From UHGV virus genome UHGV-0192279: a stretch of 50,405 nt of DNA. One strand, 5' to 3'. Position 1 is the first letter of the stretch; each line of letters begins with the position of its first letter. Under the pieces are notes generated by a model that did no database searches, was not told the origin of the DNA, and saw nothing but the letters and a program-made list of their open reading frames with translations. The stretch comes from a virus. Positions 35,339 to 46,783 of the stretch are shown one piece after another. The translations under genes were made by a program, and so were the position numbers.

Positions 35339-35517
35339 AAAACGAAGTTAAAGATCTGCAAATAGATATTCAGCGCGATGAGCATGATTTAGCTACAGTC
35401 CGACAAATCCAGGCTTTTCATATGCGCGAATTGCTTGCATTGAAAGAGCTTGAGAAAAAGTTAGTCCAGTCTATTTCTGATCGTAAACAACTTATTGCTC
35501 GTTACGGGGGGAAATAA
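35335..35517 (+). CDS. small coiled-coil protein (60 aa)
   Basis: ORF with ATGA overlap. Confidence 0.4.
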   Translation: MKNEVKDLQIDIQRDEHDLATVRQIQAFHMRELLALKELEKKLVQSISDRKQLIARYGGK

Positions 35518-36239
35518 TGAATTTAGAATCCATTCTGAAATTCCACTTTCCCAAATCACCGCGATTATCAGACGAAAGCCGGGGCACATCCCCGGATGCG
35601 CTTAATACGACTGATGCGCTAACCGCTGCGGGTATGGCGCAATCGCGCGTAGAGCTTGGCTATAGTGCTTTTTTAGGGAAGATGGAGCTATCGCAAGCCG
35701 AAAAACACAGGGCTGTAGTATTGCTTACAGAGCGTTTAAGAGCTATGGCGAAAGATTACGAATATGTGATGGAATTAAATGAAGAACAACGCAATGATCT
35801 TATTATTCTTGTTGCCGTTTTCGCGTTTCGGGATTATTGCCAAAGCGCCGCGACGGAAAAAACTTGTATGGAGTGCGGCGGATATAAATTTACGTTTGAC
35901 GACTACGGAGAAAAACATCTTTGCAAAAAATGCAAGGGGCATGGAAAGGTTCGCAATCATTGTAAACAATGCAAGGGGAGTGGCGAGATACCGGATAAAA
36001 CAGCCAGCGAAGCGGCGGAAATGCCAGTATTCAAAACGTGCCAGCACTGCGGCGGGCGAGGCTACTCGCGTTTCCCTGTAGATCTTGTCCGGCAGGCTGT
36101 TAACCAGCTTGTTTTCCCGGTAAGCCGATCAACATGGTGGAAGAAATACAGGGTTTTCTATGAGGACGCCATAGCGGAGCTATTCAAAGAAGAAGCCCGC
36201 GCGGAAAGCGAAATCAAGCGAGTGACACGGGGTGAATAA
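35517..36239 (+). CDS. putative late antiterminator Q-like protein with 4 CxxCxGxG zinc-finger repeats (240 aa)
   Basis: Position directly after rusA as in lambdoid prophages; four DnaJ-type CxxCxGxG repeats; family assignment tentative. Confidence 0.4.
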   Translation: MNLESILKFHFPKSPRLSDESRGTSPDALNTTDALTAAGMAQSRVELGYSAFLGKMELSQAEKHRAVVLLTERLRAMAKDYEYVMELNEEQRNDLIILVAVFAFRDYCQSAATEKTCMECGGYKFTFDDYGEKHLCKKCKGHGKVRNHCKQCKGSGEIPDKTASEAAEMPVFKTCQHCGGRGYSRFPVDLVRQAVNQLVFPVSRSTWWKKYRVFYEDAIAELFKEEARAESEIKRVTRGE

Positions 36240-41519: not shown

Positions 41520-41693
41520 ATGAATGAGATCGAAGACGGTGTATATGTGCATAACTTATTTGATATTGCTTACTTGCTGAAAGAGGAAAAGGTTTTTGTT
41601 ATGTCGAGTGAGCATCCTTTCTGGACTGGCGTAAACATGGATCGTGAACAGATGCAAATATTGCTTGATAATGGCCTGATAAAGAAGAAATAG
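41520..41693 (+). CDS. 57-aa ORF (MNEIEDGVYVHNLFDIAYLLKEEKVFVMSSEHPFWTG...)
   Basis: Below track cutoff; last ORF before late terminator. Confidence 0.3.
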   Translation: MNEIEDGVYVHNLFDIAYLLKEEKVFVMSSEHPFWTGVNMDREQMQILLDNGLIKKK

Positions 41694-41759
41694 AAGCCAT
41701 GATCGCGCATAAAAAACAAATAGATTAAAATACTTCCTAACAATGCGAAATTGTAATTA

Positions 41760-41786
41760 CCCGGCCCAGCGCCGGGTTTTTGCTTT
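41760..41786 (+). terminator. rho-independent terminator immediately upstream of lysis genes (tR'-like)
   Basis: CCCGGC-ccagc-GCCGGG followed by TTTTTGCTTTG; 16 nt before holin SD. Confidence 0.65.
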
Positions 41787-41801: not shown

Positions 41802-42002
41802 ATGCTCGACAAAATACGGGAGACGTGCGCGTATGCAGTAGGGGCCGTAACGGCCTTTTTCGGTGCGATAACCATCAATGATGTTGCTGTCTTTGTGGGT
41901 ATCTTATCAACCGCAGGTACATTTGCCGTTAACTATTACTTCAAATCACAGGAGAACAAGCGAGCGCAAGAGGAACACGACGCGCGAATGGGGAATAAGT
42001 AA
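41802..42002 (+). CDS. holin, phage-21 S-like pinholin (66 aa)
   Basis: GGAGGT SD; two hydrophobic helices and charged C-terminus resembling S21 (…YFK..E..R). Confidence 0.7.
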   Translation: MLDKIRETCAYAVGAVTAFFGAITINDVAVFVGILSTAGTFAVNYYFKSQENKRAQEEHDARMGNK

Positions 42003-42494
42003 ATGATTAGCCAATCGCTGAAGAACAAGATTATTGCTGCGGCGGCTGGTGGGGCGATCTCTATTGCGGCTGTGATGGTTAAATCATTAGAAGGCGTGGA
42101 GTACGATCCGTATCGTGATGTTATCGGTGTATGGACTGTATGTTATGGTCATACCGGAAAAGACATCATGCTTGGTAAGACTTACACGCAATCAGAATGC
42201 GATGCTTTGTTAAATAAAGATCTCCACAAAACCGCAAAAGCGATCGACCCCTATATTAAAGTCGAAATATCAGATTTTACCCGCGCGGCGCTTTATTCAT
42301 TCGCCTATAACGTAGGCGCTACCAACTTTAAAACATCAACATTATTGAAGCTACTCAATGACGGCAAGAAATCGGAAGCGTGCGCACAGCTTAAACGCTG
42401 GATCTATGCTGGTGGTAAGCAGTGGCAAGGGTTAATTAACCGTCGTGATATTGAATATGCCGTTTGCGAATGGGGTGAAACATGGACAAGGTAA
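42003..42494 (+). CDS. SAR endolysin, lysozyme GH24 family (163 aa)
   Basis: N-terminal signal-anchor-release segment [17 protein letters not shown] followed by E-x8-D-x5-T catalytic motif ([23 protein letters not shown]) as in phage 21 R. Confidence 0.9.
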
Positions 42495-42952
42495 AGGCGT
42501 TAGTTATTGCCGTTGTTGTTTGCATTATTGCCGGACTAACTGCCGTTACATGTTATTACCAGGGTGAGGCGGCAAGGTTACAGGAAGAAGTCACGGTGAC
42601 GCAAGGCGCACTAAAAACAGCAAGTAACACTATTCAGCAGATGAAGGAGCGAAACGCAGAGCTATCAAAACTTGATAAGAGGTATCACGATGAAATTAAA
42701 GCTATCAGATCTGACATTGCCGATCTTCGCGCTGGCATTGATAGCGGCGCTATCAGGTTGCACGTCAACGCCGAGCCAGTGCGATTGCTCGACAATACCG
42801 GAACCGCCAGCCGCATTGATGGAGCCACCTGTAGACTCACTGCCGACGCTGAATCGGCTTATCTATCCCTCAGAGAACAACTAAAAGAGAAAGACGCGAA
42901 GATCACCGGATTGCAGGACTACATCAAAACGCAGTGCTTACGCAAAAAATAA
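42482..42952 (+). CDS. i-spanin (Rz-like), 156 aa
   Basis: N-terminal TM helix then coiled-coil periplasmic domain; overlaps endolysin end. Confidence 0.7.
42690..42884 (+). CDS. o-spanin (Rz1-like lipoprotein) embedded in +1 frame of i-spanin (64 aa)
   Basis: ATG 42690 with AAGAGG SD; lipobox LSGC after signal peptide; Pro-rich mature part. Confidence 0.6.
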   Translation: MKLKLSDLTLPIFALALIAALSGCTSTPSQCDCSTIPEPPAALMEPPVDSLPTLNRLIYPSENN

Positions 42953-43230
42953 CAGCGCGTGGACGTGTCGCCGTTTTCGCCAGCCAGCCATAACCGGGTC
43001 AATCCTTCCCGCGAGCGACTGCGGAATAGTCAAAAACACGTAATACCGGATCATCCATCCCATTAACAGGTCGGCGCTACCTGGGTAGAAGAAAGCGCCA
43101 TCCACCAATTTTATAAAATTCTGGAAACGGTACTGATGAAGCGCCGTTTTCAGTGTTTTATAGCTGTTTTCACTCCCTGCGGTGTCGAGTTTTGCGGGGG
43201 TTATATTTTTCAGAATAGGAGATTATTCTG

Positions 43231-43773
43231 ATGGCTAAGGCTAAAGGCATTAAGTTGCCTCACTTCAAGATCCCGCTTTTTGAGCATACCACTGTTTTCT
43301 TTTGCCCGACCAGCGAGATGTTCTATGAATTTTGCGAAAAGGCAGGAATTCCGATTGAACCTGATTTCGAGTTGGCTGAAGGATTAACGCTTACTTGCAC
43401 TGGCGAGAATGGTGGTAACTTCTACGTGATCGCAGTATTCAACAATGAGTTGGGAACGCTGGTCCATGAATGCGCCCACACTACATTCCACGTTTTAAGT
43501 GATGTAGGCGTCGTGGCTACCACGGATCCTACCCATCCGGCGAATGAGACTTACGCTTACATGGTAGGCCGTATCTTCGATGCGTTTTCCCCTATCCTGG
43601 CAGAATCAAACGAAGCACAGGTTGCAGCAATGCAGGCGGCAGAAGTCGTCGATCAGGCGCTGGAACAGGCAGAACAGCCGAAGGAAGAAGAAAAGCCAGC
43701 GAAGAAAGGTAAACGTAAGCCGAAATCAAAAGAGGCATATGTGCCGCGCGTAATGAGCTTTAAACGAGGGTGA
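43231..43773 (+). CDS. HExxH-motif protein with Lys-rich C-terminal tail (180 aa)
   Basis: HECAH followed about 25 aa later by ETYAY (possible third zinc ligand); AGGAG SD; C-terminus KEEEKPAKKGKRKPKSKE. Confidence 0.5.
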   Translation: MAKAKGIKLPHFKIPLFEHTTVFFCPTSEMFYEFCEKAGIPIEPDFELAEGLTLTCTGENGGNFYVIAVFNNELGTLVHECAHTTFHVLSDVGVVATTDPTHPANETYAYMVGRIFDAFSPILAESNEAQVAAMQAAEVVDQALEQAEQPKEEEKPAKKGKRKPKSKEAYVPRVMSFKRG

Positions 43774-43775
43774 TT

Positions 43776-43844
43776 ATGTTTACTTTTCTGTTAGGCGTAT
43801 TTGTTGGTATTGCTGCCGCTGTGATCTTGATATACGGGCATTAA
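43776..43844 (+). CDS. micro-ORF 1/12: 22-aa hydrophobic peptide MFTFLLGVFVGIAAAVILIYGH
   Basis: ATG 3 nt after upstream stop; GAGGG SD. Confidence 0.4.
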   Translation: MFTFLLGVFVGIAAAVILIYGH

Positions 43845-43848
43845 TATT

Positions 43849-43944
43849 ATGGATGAGAACATCATCGCCGGACTAATCGGTGTTTCTGTATTTCTGGTGT
43901 GTTTTGTCATTGCCGTGCTGATAACCGTAAAGAGTAAATTATGA
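43849..43944 (+). CDS. micro-ORF 2/12: 31-aa peptide MDENIIAGLIGVSVFLVCFVIAVLITVKSKL
   Basis: ATG 5 nt after previous stop; hydrophobic core, basic C-terminus. Confidence 0.4.
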   Translation: MDENIIAGLIGVSVFLVCFVIAVLITVKSKL

Positions 43945-44015
43945 ACGCCTACGATCTCATCTGGTTATTGGTGCTCATCGTAGGTATTTGCGTGAACATT
44001 TACAGGCTGTGGTGA
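43941..44015 (+). CDS. micro-ORF 3/12: 24-aa peptide MNAYDLIWLLVLIVGICVNIYRLW
   Basis: ATGA overlap with previous stop; AAGAG SD; paralogous N-terminus with micro-ORFs 5 and 7. Confidence 0.45.
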   Translation: MNAYDLIWLLVLIVGICVNIYRLW

Positions 44016-44020
44016 AAAAT

Positions 44021-44095
44021 ATGATTGACCCGGTCGTTATCCTTTCTGCATGCGTCGCTGTATGGCTGGCGGTCATGATATTCATCGAAAGCTAA
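44021..44095 (+). CDS. micro-ORF 4/12: 24-aa peptide MIDPVVILSACVAVWLAVMIFIES
   Basis: ATG 6 nt after previous stop; GGTG SD-like. Confidence 0.35.
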   Translation: MIDPVVILSACVAVWLAVMIFIES

Positions 44096-44105
44096 AGGTA
44101 TCAAC

Positions 44106-44180
44106 ATGAATATTTACGATCTCATCTGGTGCTCATCACTCGCCGTCATTATGTATCTGTGGTTAAAGAATGTTGTATAG
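44106..44180 (+). CDS. micro-ORF 5/12: 24-aa peptide MNIYDLIWCSSLAVIMYLWLKNVV
   Basis: AAAGG SD; shares MN.YDLIW with micro-ORF 3 (DNA-level tacgatctcatctggt repeat). Confidence 0.45.
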   Translation: MNIYDLIWCSSLAVIMYLWLKNVV

Positions 44181-44188
44181 GTGACGGC

Positions 44189-44287
44189 ATGGATATATTC
44201 GAATTACTGGCGATTATGTGCGGCATGATGTTAGGCATTGTCGCCATAATCATCATCATCGGTCTGGTTGTAGGTAGTATCAAATGA
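44189..44287 (+). CDS. micro-ORF 6/12: 32-aa peptide MDIFELLAIMCGMMLGIVAIIIIIGLVVGSIK
   Basis: AGGTGA SD 5 nt upstream. Confidence 0.45.
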   Translation: MDIFELLAIMCGMMLGIVAIIIIIGLVVGSIK

Positions 44288-44364
44288 ACGCCTACGAAAT
44301 GCTATTGCTGGTGGCTGCCGTTGCAGTTATTGCCGTGGACGTATACCGGGAGACTAAAAAATGA
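44284..44364 (+). CDS. micro-ORF 7/12: 26-aa peptide MNAYEMLLLVAAVAVIAVDVYRETKK
   Basis: ATGA overlap; shares atgaacgcctacga with micro-ORF 3. Confidence 0.45.
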   Translation: MNAYEMLLLVAAVAVIAVDVYRETKK

Positions 44365-44429
44365 AATGGCTTGATTTATTTTTCCTGACCGTTGCGATTG
44401 TTCTTACCATGACCGCGTTGACTCAATAG
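44361..44429 (+). CDS. micro-ORF 8/12: 22-aa peptide MKWLDLFFLTVAIVLTMTALTQ
   Basis: ATGA overlap; GGGAGA SD. Confidence 0.45.
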   Translation: MKWLDLFFLTVAIVLTMTALTQ

Positions 44430-44437
44430 GTGAATAT

Positions 44438-44512
44438 ATGGAAACCATCGAGGCTGTATTATTCGTATGTATTGCAGCGGCTGTTATTGTGGGGTTTATT
44501 ATCAATGTCTGA
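44438..44512 (+). CDS. micro-ORF 9/12: 24-aa peptide METIEAVLFVCIAAAVIVGFIINV
   Basis: AGGTGA SD 6 nt upstream. Confidence 0.45.
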   Translation: METIEAVLFVCIAAAVIVGFIINV

Positions 44513-44528
44513 CGGTGATTTCTTAATT

Positions 44529-44573
44529 ATGGCTATATGCACACTGTTAGCCGTTATCGTTTTTTTTGCGTGA
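44529..44573 (+). CDS. micro-ORF 10/12: 14-aa peptide MAICTLLAVIVFFA (may be truncated at T7 homopolymer)
   Basis: Weak SD; ORF ends just after a run of 7 T. Confidence 0.2.
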   Translation: MAICTLLAVIVFFA

Positions 44574-44582
44574 GAAAGCATC

Positions 44583-44726
44583 ATGTCTGAATTCCTCAAT
44601 CTGCTAACGTTCTTGCTTTGCGCTGGTCTGCTTATTGCCGCATTAATGTTATGCGTATACGTGATTGTAATGATTACCGCGCTTATTTACAGAGAAGCAA
44701 AACAGAGATTTAAGGTTAAACAATGA
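44583..44726 (+). CDS. micro-ORF 11/12: 47-aa peptide MSEFLNLLTFLLCAGLLIAALMLCVYVIVMITALIYREAKQRFKVKQ
   Basis: Long hydrophobic span then basic tail; GAGAAAG SD-like. Confidence 0.45.
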   Translation: MSEFLNLLTFLLCAGLLIAALMLCVYVIVMITALIYREAKQRFKVKQ

Positions 44727-44806
44727 AAAAGCTATTCGACTGGTTGGAAGTATTAACATACTGTGCAAGTTTTGTTGCTTGCGTATATATCATCAATAAA
44801 TATTGA
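44723..44806 (+). CDS. micro-ORF 12/12: 27-aa peptide MKKLFDWLEVLTYCASFVACVYIINKY
   Basis: ATGA overlap; AAGGT SD. Confidence 0.45.
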   Translation: MKKLFDWLEVLTYCASFVACVYIINKY

Positions 44807-44816
44807 GAGGTGAATT

Positions 44817-45302
44817 ATGGCCCGCACTAAAAATGCAAAAGCTGACGACAAAAAGCCAGCCGCTAAAAAGGTGGGCCGTCCGCATGGTTATACCGAAGAA
44901 AAAGCATTAGAAATCTGTGAGCTGGTGGCGGACGGTCAGAGTGTTAACAAAATTTCGAAAATGCCTGGTATGCCTACCCGTTCCACAATCCTGAAATGGT
45001 TTAGAGACGTGCCGGAATTCTCGGACATGTACATGCACGCGAAGGAAATCGGCTTCGAGGTATTAGCTGATGAGATCCTCGATATAGCTGATGATGCTAA
45101 GAACGTTGATAAAGACCAACTACGCCGCCACCAACTAATGATTGAAACGCGTAAATGGTTACTGGCAAAACTGCAACCGCGTAAATATGGCGAACGCGTC
45201 ACACAGGAGATCGTCGGCAACAAGGAAGAAGCACCCGTCCAGGTTGAAGTCACGAAAGAAGAGATCGCCCGCATCGTCCAGGAAGTAGAAGACGAGGTGT
45301 GA
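44817..45302 (+). CDS. terminase small subunit (161 aa)
   Basis: GAGGTG SD; N-terminal HTH-like DNA-binding region (GRPHGYTEEKALEICELVADGQSVNKISK) typical of small terminases; directly upstream of large terminase. Confidence 0.75.
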   Translation: MARTKNAKADDKKPAAKKVGRPHGYTEEKALEICELVADGQSVNKISKMPGMPTRSTILKWFRDVPEFSDMYMHAKEIGFEVLADEILDIADDAKNVDKDQLRRHQLMIETRKWLLAKLQPRKYGERVTQEIVGNKEEAPVQVEVTKEEIARIVQEVEDEV

Positions 45303-46783
45303 TTATGTTGTCCATCAAAGAAAGGGTTATTCAATCCAAATGTGAAAACGATGGCTTGTTCTTCAACCGTTATTTCTATAAGCAGGCCAACGGCACGAAG
45401 ATGTTAATCTCAGGCCATCACATAGCCATACGCGATGCGCTACAACGCGTTATCAATGGTGAGATTACCCGTCTCATCATTAACATTCCCCCAGGGTACG
45501 GTAAAACCATGATTGCGACCATTAACATGATGGCGCGGTCCCTCGCAATAAATCCCCGCACACGTTTCCTTCACGTTTCCTATTCCGACAATCTTGCGTT
45601 ACTCAATTCCTCGACAGTCAGAAACATGATTTGCTCGCAGGAATACCAGAAGTTATGGCCTATGAAGATCCGCAATGATGCCAACAGTAAATCAATGTGG
45701 TGGACGGAACAGGGAGGCGGGATATATGCCGCATCTTCACAGGGCCAGATAACAGGCTTCCGTGCTGGTTACATGGAGCCGGGCTTCAACGGCGCGATGA
45801 TTATCGACGACCCATTAAAGCCCGCTGACGCTTACTCTGATGTGATGCGTGAGAAGGTAAAGACCAACTACAACGACACGCTGGCTTCACGTCTGGCAGT
45901 ACAAACAACGCCAGTGATCGTTATCATGCAACGCATCCACTACGATGATTTGTCCGGCTACCTGTTACGCGGTGGAAGCGGTGAGAAATGGTATCACCTC
46001 AACCTGCCTGTGAAGATTGATAACAGCGTCGACTATTGGGATCTGTACCCGGAAAATGAATTCGCTATTCCTATTGCTCACAACCTGCCGGACGGCTGGC
46101 TATGGCCTAAAAAGCACAATGACAGCCACGAAGCCGGACTAAAGGCGCACCGCAGGTCATTCGAAGCCCAATATATGCAGCGCCCGCGTAAATTCGACGA
46201 GGAAGGCGCATTGTGGACGGAAGCGATGATAACCGCTGCGCACCGGATGCAGATAACGCAGGACAAGATTCGCACGGTAATAGCCATCGACCCGGCTACA
46301 ACATCATCTGATGAATCGGACGAAACCGGGATCGTGGCATGTTCCGCCTATGGTGGCGGCAAGTACGCACAGTATTCAGTAGACGGTGACTACTCAGGCC
46401 GCATGTCTCCTAACGATTGGGCGCAAGCCTCAATGAACGCTTATAACATCCATGAGGCTGATGCGATAGTTATCGAAACCAACCAGGGCGGCGAAATGGC
46501 AGTGGCCACGTTGCGTAATGCCGGATTCAAAGGCCGCATTGTTAAGGTGCACGCAAGCAAAGGTAAATTCGCCCGCGCCGAGCCAATATCGGCACTGTAT
46601 GCACAGGGAAGGGTAGCCCACACTGGCAGCCTGTACACGCTGGAAAATCAAATGATGGAATACGTGCCAGCTACCGCTAAAAAATCACCCGACCGCCTCG
46701 ACGCGATGGTATGGGGTATCACTGAATTAAGCCAGCCACAGGCTGTGGGCCTCATGTTACCTAAGCGCCTGCGCGGATTTTAA
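45299..46783 (+). CDS. terminase large subunit (494 aa)
   Basis: Size, position between small terminase and portal, ATPase-like N-terminal region (PPGYGKTM) and acidic nuclease-like C-terminal region. Confidence 0.75.
   Translation: MIMLSIKERVIQSKCENDGLFFNRYFYKQANGTKMLISGHHIAIRDALQRVINGEITRLIINIPPGYGKTMIATINMMARSLAINPRTRFLHVSYSDNLALLNSSTVRNMICSQEYQKLWPMKIRNDANSKSMWWTEQGGGIYAASSQGQITGFRAGYMEPGFNGAMIIDDPLKPADAYSDVMREKVKTNYNDTLASRLAVQTTPVIVIMQRIHYDDLSGYLLRGGSGEKWYHLNLPVKIDNSVDYWDLYPENEFAIPIAHNLPDGWLWPKKHNDSHEAGLKAHRRSFEAQYMQRPRKFDEEGALWTEAMITAAHRMQITQDKIRTVIAIDPATTSSDESDETGIVACSAYGGGKYAQYSVDGDYSGRMSPNDWAQASMNAYNIHEADAIVIETNQGGEMAVATLRNAGFKGRIVKVHASKGKFARAEPISALYAQGRVAHTGSLYTLENQMMEYVPATAKKSPDRLDAMVWGITELSQPQAVGLMLPKRLRGF

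Follow-up and report, generated by a model that had tools for sequence, protein, structure and literature searches.

A widespread, unannotated family of small phage proteins with a gluzincin-type active site, and its member encoded ahead of a micro-ORF array in mEp021-like coliphages

Introduction

Zincins can be very small, as in the minigluzincins proabylysin and projannalysin and in PDB entry 3e11, described there as a 'predicted zincin-like metalloprotease'. The M3 oligopeptidases, including oligopeptidase A (4ka8), neurolysin and Dcp, are two-domain, substrate-enclosing enzymes of about 680 aa. Small HExxH proteins are common in phages as members of the SprT-like class (PF10263), which can be considered together with Spartan and Wss1, and in SprT-type enzymes the third zinc ligand is a histidine. 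Another small phage HExxH protein, PhageMetallopep (PF18894), is encoded just upstream of terS, and the regulatory metalloproteases ImmA/IrrE (M78) and CapP offer further points of comparison. Metallopeptidase (MPTase) domains also occur in the polyvalent proteins, namely at the C-terminus of ArdC, in DdrB of phage P1 and in a region of the N4 vRNAP (PMC5512222). The zincin-like core of these domains consists of a three-stranded sheet, a helix bearing HExxH and a next helix that supplies a glutamate ligand (PMC5512222).

The window analysed here, the whole 50,405-nt stretch of virus genome UHGV-0192279, encodes a 180-aa protein in which a sequence-only reading had noticed an HExxH motif. That observation was correct: the protein is a member of a family, unannotated but widespread in phages, whose active site is of the gluzincin type. 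Like the polyvalent MPTase domains, the family is phage-borne and is predicted to have the same core, and some of its members adjoin ParB_N genes, which recalls the ParB and MPTase fusion of P1 DdrB; it differs from those domains in that its proteins stand alone among the matches listed and have no significant Pfam match. PF18818, which we take to be the Pfam model of the MPTase-PolyVal domain, gave no match to the protein at E<=10 and was not among the Pfam families matched by the 133 members of our family alignment. With the M3 oligopeptidases only the core around the active-site helices can be aligned, at 12% identity, and the large enclosing architecture of those enzymes is unlike that of the protein studied here. 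In contrast to ImmA/IrrE and CapP, the gene lies in the late operon rather than in an immunity region, there is no significant sequence match, and no HTH repressor gene is adjacent, the neighbours being Rz, the micro-ORFs and terS in the window and Dec, PHROG 571 and terminase genes in relatives. PF18894, although similar in size class and position, is a separate family with its own Pfam model, a length of 212 aa and its own PHROG (513), and our protein does not match it.

Results and Discussion

A conserved gene of the mEpimmI phages

The window represents an mEp021-like (mEpimmI) temperate phage of E. coli. Phages of the mEpimmI group are temperate, Nus-dependent, non-lambdoid coliphages (PMC11893012), and the region of interest shares 88-90% identity with Escherichia phage MagusPhagus and with mEp010, mEp013, mEp021, mEp044, mEp515 and mEp554. 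Of 5426 complete E. coli genomes, 35 have the same region in prophages, and RefSeq annotates the product there as hypothetical. The HExxH gene is the orthologue of mEp021_49, also annotated as 'hypothetical protein'; mEp021 gp49 is not discussed in the mEpimmI paper, and our literature search found nothing on the family, including biochemical data for any member.

The gene runs on the plus strand from an ATG at 43231 to 43773, as in the ORF list. The sequence-only reading had described a 180-aa HECAH reading frame with a glutamate about 25 residues downstream in a gluzincin-like arrangement, a Lys-rich tail, and 12 micro-ORFs directly 3', and on each of these points the closer analysis agreed. 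The HECAH motif corresponds to H79-E80-x-x-H83 (residues 79-83, 43465-43479), the glutamate is E106 (43546-43548), which lies 23 residues C-terminal of H83 and is invariant in the family, and Y110 (43558-43560) follows within the sequence NETYAY (residues 105-110). The C-terminus is Lys/Arg-rich (KKGKRKPKSKEAYVPRVMSFKRG; KKGKRKPKSK...VPRVMSFKRG), the basic tail being residues 150-180 (43678-43770), and no hydrophobic or membrane segment is present in the protein. With the last base of the stop codon at 43773 and the ATG of the first micro-ORF at 43776, the spacing is 2 nt. Among nine mEpimmI relatives, identity is 93% at codon positions 1 and 2 of the gene and 65% at position 3, a contrast that indicates purifying selection on the encoded protein.

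A Shine-Dalgarno sequence AGGAG (43217-43221) lies 9 nt 5' of the ATG and is enclosed in a small hairpin, CAGAATAGGAGATTATTCTG (43211..43230, plus strand), predicted both from the single sequence and from the alignment. Variants of this hairpin among relatives are one-sided only and all are compatible with pairing, and it may provide translational control or may be due to chance.

Family membership and conservation of the active site

The protein matched PHROG 1365, a family of unknown function, with E=2.2e-30, its residues 1-131 aligning with positions 3-124 of the 127 profile positions. A profile search against 1.8 billion cluster representatives recovered 239 proteins at E<=1e-3, nearly all of them stand-alone and about 110-140 aa long, mostly near 120 aa; a word-indexed search recovered close relatives only. 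No domain fusion was seen among the matches listed from two large searches, which were small solo proteins of 110-190 aa. The one exception, a 6837-aa protein, matched on profile positions 4-19 only and was taken to be spurious. Basic C-terminal tails reappear in unrelated branches of the family, and most members have no tail.

In an alignment of 133 homologues with a mean column identity of 14%, the only invariant columns are H79, E80, H83 and E106. G51 and Y110 are conserved in at least 90% of the sequences, and no further histidine is invariant. Sole invariance of these four residues among such divergent homologues shows that the HECAH motif is not a chance match, and since the four residues make up the zinc-binding and catalytic set of gluzincins, it also supports the gluzincin-like reading. 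The same pattern bears on whether the family could consist of catalytically inert zincin-fold proteins that act by binding, as regulators or inhibitors. In favour are the very small size of the protein and its long C-terminal helix and tail, which point to interactions with partners; but an inert scaffold is hard to reconcile with an alignment of divergent sequences in which the catalytic and metal-binding residues, and only these four, never change while everything else varies, and we regard it as extremely improbable. In the catalytic reading that we prefer, H79, H83 and E106 would hold a zinc ion, E80 would activate a water molecule and the near-invariant Y110 would line the active site.

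The family is nearly blank in curated resources. No Pfam-A family was matched by the protein in hmmscan at E<=10, there was no significant match for the family in NCBIfam, and sequence searches of the PDB with the single protein and with the profile gave nothing significant. In PADLOC-DB the protein itself had no match, and the best match among the 133 members was to capP, at E=0.0048 in two members.

Predicted fold

Structure prediction from the 133-sequence alignment gave an AlphaFold2 (AF2) model with pLDDT 92.2 and pTM 0.77, whereas AlphaFold with the 16 close homologues only gave a poor model (pLDDT 54.8). The model contains strands at residues 11-13, 21-25, 51-57 and 63-69 and helices at 28-38, 74-91 and 103-148. 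HExxH lies on helix 74-91, and E106 is placed, after a loop, at the start of the long helix 103-148, so that the motif and the glutamate are on two consecutive helices of a metalloprotease-like fold, the outcome for which structure prediction had been proposed as a check. The N-terminal helix 28-38 and a small mixed sheet precede the HExxH helix, as a zincin core requires, and the zincin-like core as modelled covers about residues 1-130 (43231-43620, plus strand). The model thus agrees with the zincin MPTase core defined by Iyer et al. (PMC5512222).

Foldseek found no significant match to the model in the PDB. In BFVD, a collection of structures predicted for viral proteins, 26 phage proteins matched at E<1e-3. 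Nearly all of these are uncharacterised, two being named SprT-like and one 'Metalloprotease'. We conclude from the model that the protein would have a zincin-type core with an intact active site and no close kin among solved or curated families.

The two SprT-like names, and weak matches to the Pfam SprT-like model (PF10263) in 32 of the 133 members (seen only with E up to 1, the best at 1e-4), raise the question of a DNA-dependent protease of the SprT, Spartan or Wss1 kind that removes DNA-bound or cross-linked proteins, and the basic tail could bind DNA, as could the basic region of those enzymes. The matches are not significant, however: the protein itself has none, ten further family members compared with Pfam in order to inspect the SprT-like matches also had none, and no structural match to solved SprT-like members was obtained. 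The third metal ligand in our family would moreover be the invariant E106, not a histidine. We therefore give little credence to a SprT-like assignment.

Operon context and expression

Far upstream of the gene the window encodes a Q-type late antiterminator (35517..36239, plus strand; Pfam PF03589 Antiterm, E=5e-29), with NinG and RusA just upstream of it. The gene itself follows a lysis cassette on the same strand (41802..42952; Pfam Phage_holin_2_3, Phage_lysozyme and Phage_lysis), made up of a holin (41802-42002), an endolysin (42003-42494), an Rz i-spanin (42482-42952) and, embedded in Rz, an Rz1 o-spanin (42672-42884) recognised by the LSGC lipobox in its translation. The terminase genes are the next genes of the operon, again on the plus strand, with terS at 44817-45302 (PHROG 1482) and TerL at 45299-46783 (PHROG 38); orthologues of the two in relatives match Pfam Sf6_terminase and Terminase_6C, respectively.

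Between the lysis cassette and the HExxH gene lies a hairpin element (43110..43162) with the features of a bidirectional intrinsic terminator, that is, an A-tract TTTATAAAATT, a hairpin formed by CTGGAAACGGTAC and GCGCCGTTTTCAG, and a U-tract TGTTTTATA. The 13-bp stem is a consensus helix in RNAalifold (columns 220-270), two-sided stem changes that keep the pairing were seen by eye in the more distant relatives L098 and L103, and the element coincides in position with the annotated terminator TERM_6 of mEp021. No sigma-70-like promoter was found at the scan threshold between this hairpin and the start codon. A terminator behind the lysis cassette, in a phage that encodes a Q antiterminator, points to late expression of the HExxH gene, a timing that we infer from gene order. 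Most simply, polymerase reading through the post-lysis terminator would transcribe the HExxH gene late, along with the micro-ORFs and the packaging genes; the HExxH gene would then be an accessory of the late operon, and Q-modified RNA polymerase would pass the terminator and co-transcribe it with the micro-ORFs and the terminase genes. The earlier suggestion of one transcription unit for the gene and the micro-ORFs fits the 2-nt spacing, the overlapping start and stop codons and the lack of a convincing internal terminator.

We also note a promoter-like site at 41645-41672 and, some 90 nt further on and just 5' of the holin gene, a strong terminator hairpin (41759-41777). This region (41645-41777) matches TERM_5 of the mEp021 record, and its layout is similar to that of lambda pR'-tR', the late promoter and terminator on which Q acts.

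The interval between Rz and the HExxH gene

Rz ends at 42952 and leaves a gap of 278 nt (42953-43230) before the HExxH gene. The gap had been described as non-coding and 278 bp long; the length is confirmed, and the lack of a conserved ORF on either strand (six-frame translations of nine relatives) upholds the description as non-coding; it is not, however, an empty spacer. Its mean pairwise identity among 9-13 relatives is 0.91, compared with 0.65 at the third codon positions of the HExxH gene and 0.63 at those of terS, and identity above that of the neighbours' synonymous sites argues against neutral sequence. Besides the terminator-like element, the gap contains a conserved non-coding block directly after the Rz stop codon (42953..43105), with about 95% column identity among the 9-13 relatives. 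This block of about 150 nt stays conserved even where the HExxH protein is only 59% identical, is absent from the distant relative L098, and contains an inverted repeat (43074-43091; CAGGT..ACCTG) whose centre is polymorphic for a 1-nt indel. It matched no Rfam family, and one possibility is that it is a small RNA derived from the 3'UTR of the lysis transcript.

A hidden gene in the gap was considered and rejected, with no ORF kept in the nine relatives and the 1-nt indel shifting the only long minus-strand frame. A cos site was likewise rejected, as the phage has a headful TerS of the Sf6 type and the breaks in three assembled phage contigs of about 54 kb fall at unrelated positions. In the wider interval 42000-45500 no known RNA family scored above threshold in Rfam. 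A sub-threshold match to the ribosomal S15 leader (44764-44845; 22.9 bits against a gathering threshold of 39.5, E=0.026), running from the 3' end of the last micro-ORF into terS, is probably due to chance.

The micro-ORF array

Directly downstream of the HExxH gene are 12 tightly packed micro-ORFs of 22-47 codons on the plus strand (43776..44806), each encoding essentially one hydrophobic or transmembrane helix; they are in the ORF list and are conserved in relatives. The Shine-Dalgarno sequence of the first lies within the 3' end of the HExxH gene, many of the micro-ORFs have overlapping stop and start codons, and the series continues up to terS at 44817. Translation of the micro-ORFs appears to be coupled, both among themselves and with the HExxH gene. 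RefSeq and GenBank records leave nearly all of them unannotated, and they belong to no PHROG family. Sequence comparison nevertheless indicates that they are real genes. Relatives carry between 4 and 13 copies with highly conserved peptides; for one peptide, MKELFDWLEVLTYCASFVACVYIINKY, 12 different DNA sequences encode only four peptide variants; substitutions were biased to the third codon position in all five micro-ORF orthologue sets tested; and clear paralogue sets (MNAYD/MNIYD/MNAYE...) can be recognised.

The sequence-only reading had found the combination reminiscent of peptide-processing or immunity modules, as a speculation; in such a module the metallopeptidase would mature, degrade or regulate the 12 micro-peptides. 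The 2-nt spacing, the position of the first Shine-Dalgarno sequence inside the protease gene and the conserved coding character of the array are all consistent with such a module, as is the order of gene and array, which all 12 close mEpimmI relatives examined have in common, including those in which protease identity falls to 59%. Outside this group the association breaks down. In 71 scored P22-like loci from IMG/VR, the unassigned DNA up to 1.2 kb to either side of the family gene contained no hydrophobic micro-ORF, and the surroundings of the gene in T7-like, N4-like and other phages likewise bear no relation to peptide arrays. In L098, where the protease is 51% identical and both tail and terminator are kept, terS begins 3 nt beyond the stop codon of the protease with no array between. 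Within the group the peptides differ in identity and in number (4 to 13), and the protease is retained. The peptides themselves, single helices of 22-47 aa, have no leader or shared cleavage motif that could be seen by eye, and the protease has no membrane segment. As far as these genomes show, the association of array and protease is confined to the mEpimmI group. A functional tie between the two is not supported, the micro-peptides are unlikely to be the protease target, the HExxH protein is probably not a processing enzyme for the adjacent membrane peptides, and we consider the module as proposed to be very unlikely. Protease and array, which seemed to form one module, can thus be separated, and the mEpimmI-specific array merits its own study.

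Genomic neighbourhoods and probable target of the family

Loci of more distant family members were collected from IMG/VR with a 12-sequence subset of the family alignment as query. In P22-like phages (L Orf129, ST64T gp49, epsilon34 gp70 and g341c gp66) the family member lies between Rz and terS, frequently flanked by PHROG 571, by the Dec decoration gene or by a second HExxH protein (PF18894). Packaging genes, with several TerL types, follow within four genes downstream in 60 of the 71 P22-like loci. In P22 and in HK620 (hkcC) the family gene is found at the opposite end of the late operon, in the immI region, with gene 16/sieA on one side and mnt on the other. The P22 copy is an intact unannotated ORF of 120-125 aa with HECAH and NETYCY (record BK000583, 13849-14226, plus strand; positions 2489-2866 of our locus L005), and it sits between sieA and orf59a/mnt. 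In Ralstonia phage RSJ2 the gene comes after Rz, at the end of the genome; a Pseudomonas T7-like phage has it between the ligase and RNA polymerase genes, and in N4-like Bp4 it is among small genes near the start of the record. These scattered positions imply an accessory gene and not a component of lysis, packaging or peptide maturation.

An accessory gene carried by temperate phages could be expressed from the prophage as a defence or exclusion gene, for example as a Lit-like abortive-infection protease that blocks other phages. The gene does occupy a moron-like position between operon modules with a terminator on its upstream side, it is prophage-borne in the 35 E. coli genomes mentioned above, and the P22 copy is in the immI/sieA region. 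Yet the interval from terminator to start codon has no sigma-70-like promoter, the gene is apparently coupled by translation into the late operon, the family also occurs in virulent T7-like and N4-like phages, and no PADLOC model was matched. Taken together these points make prophage defence distinctly unlikely.

On balance, and with slightly better than even confidence, we favour a soluble, minimal gluzincin-like metallopeptidase encoded by a late accessory gene, which would act on a protein of the host or of a rival and use its tail as a tether to a polyanion. Its target would most likely be a cytoplasmic protein of the host or of a competing element. The role would then be host modulation or counter-defence, the grounds for counter-defence being the accessory behaviour of the gene and an analogy with further MPTases of phages and plasmids. 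In the mEpimmI version the additional coiled helix and the Lys/Arg-rich tail probably anchor the protein to a polyanion, for which nucleic acid is a candidate.

A different use of the tail would be to load the protein into the head, from which it would be injected as an early effector, for example in anti-restriction, as a solo form of a polyvalent-protein MPTase. Solo polyvalent-protein domains that adjoin virion genes have been argued to act early in invasion (PMC5512222). The HExxH gene adjoins packaging genes, or ejection-protein genes in P22; the homologue P0118 is named 'PolyVal Metallopeptidase superfamily domain' in one source; and tailed homologues are found beside two ParB_N genes, as in the ParB and MPTase fusion of DdrB. 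There is also a loose resemblance between the end of the tail, YVPRVMSFKRG (43738-43770), and the C-terminus of TerL, GLMLPKRLRGF (46750-46783), but it extends over few residues, and the tail is absent in most family members. The lack of any Pfam match at E<=10, and hence of one to PF18818, also stands against this reading, and mEp021_49 is not labelled 'virion structural protein' even though the virion proteins of mEp021 were mapped by mass spectrometry. To our knowledge the well-studied P22 virion has no such metallopeptidase component, which again counts against an injected effector, and we consider it unlikely. A broader proposal, that the protein is a minimal stand-alone effector of the ArdC/DdrB type, which the basic tail ties to DNA or, by mimicry of the terminase C-terminus, docks at the portal, and that it destroys host restriction or defence proteins, either carried into the next infection or active at its start, or else active late on DNA-bound proteins, appears to us quite unlikely as a whole. 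If a counterpart of ArdC and DdrB were nonetheless at hand, a module of about 120 aa would be a general, unrecognised counter-defence protease of phages, present even in P22.

The favoured reading of a late accessory metallopeptidase provides a fold and a catalytic hypothesis for a widespread family that has been blank until now, being of 'unknown function' in PHROG 1365, without a Pfam model and 'hypothetical protein' in RefSeq. Family copies are present in tractable model phages, namely P22, where the gene is intact and unannotated, HK620, L, epsilon34 and mEp021, and simple deletion and E-to-A experiments in these phages could therefore reveal the substrate. If the true target were a host defence protein or a DNA-bound protein, a very small class of protease would join the counter-defence tools of phages.

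Several minor features of the collected loci may be recorded. In L098 the protease tail and the TerL C-terminus can be paired in the same way as in the window (YVPRIARYKRG and GLMLPGRLR), the stretches being too short for statistics. The gene directly after the family member in 12 of the 71 loci (e.g. L019 and L022-L030) encodes the unrelated 212-aa HExxH protein of PF18894 PhageMetallopep (E=1.6e-42), whose PHROG 513 bears the label 'transposase', which looks like a mislabel. Two metagenomic loci, L100 (3528-7486) and L101 (3711-7444), have tailed members of 189 aa after two ParB_N genes and an AAA ATPase gene, in a block that also encodes an uncharacterised protein of some 300 aa and is divergent from a DEAD/ResIII helicase gene. 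In L103 (2752-3273 and 8491-8534) an HNH endonuclease gene is inserted between the endolysin and Rz genes, and an intein-splicing domain is present in the Mu-F-like head protein.
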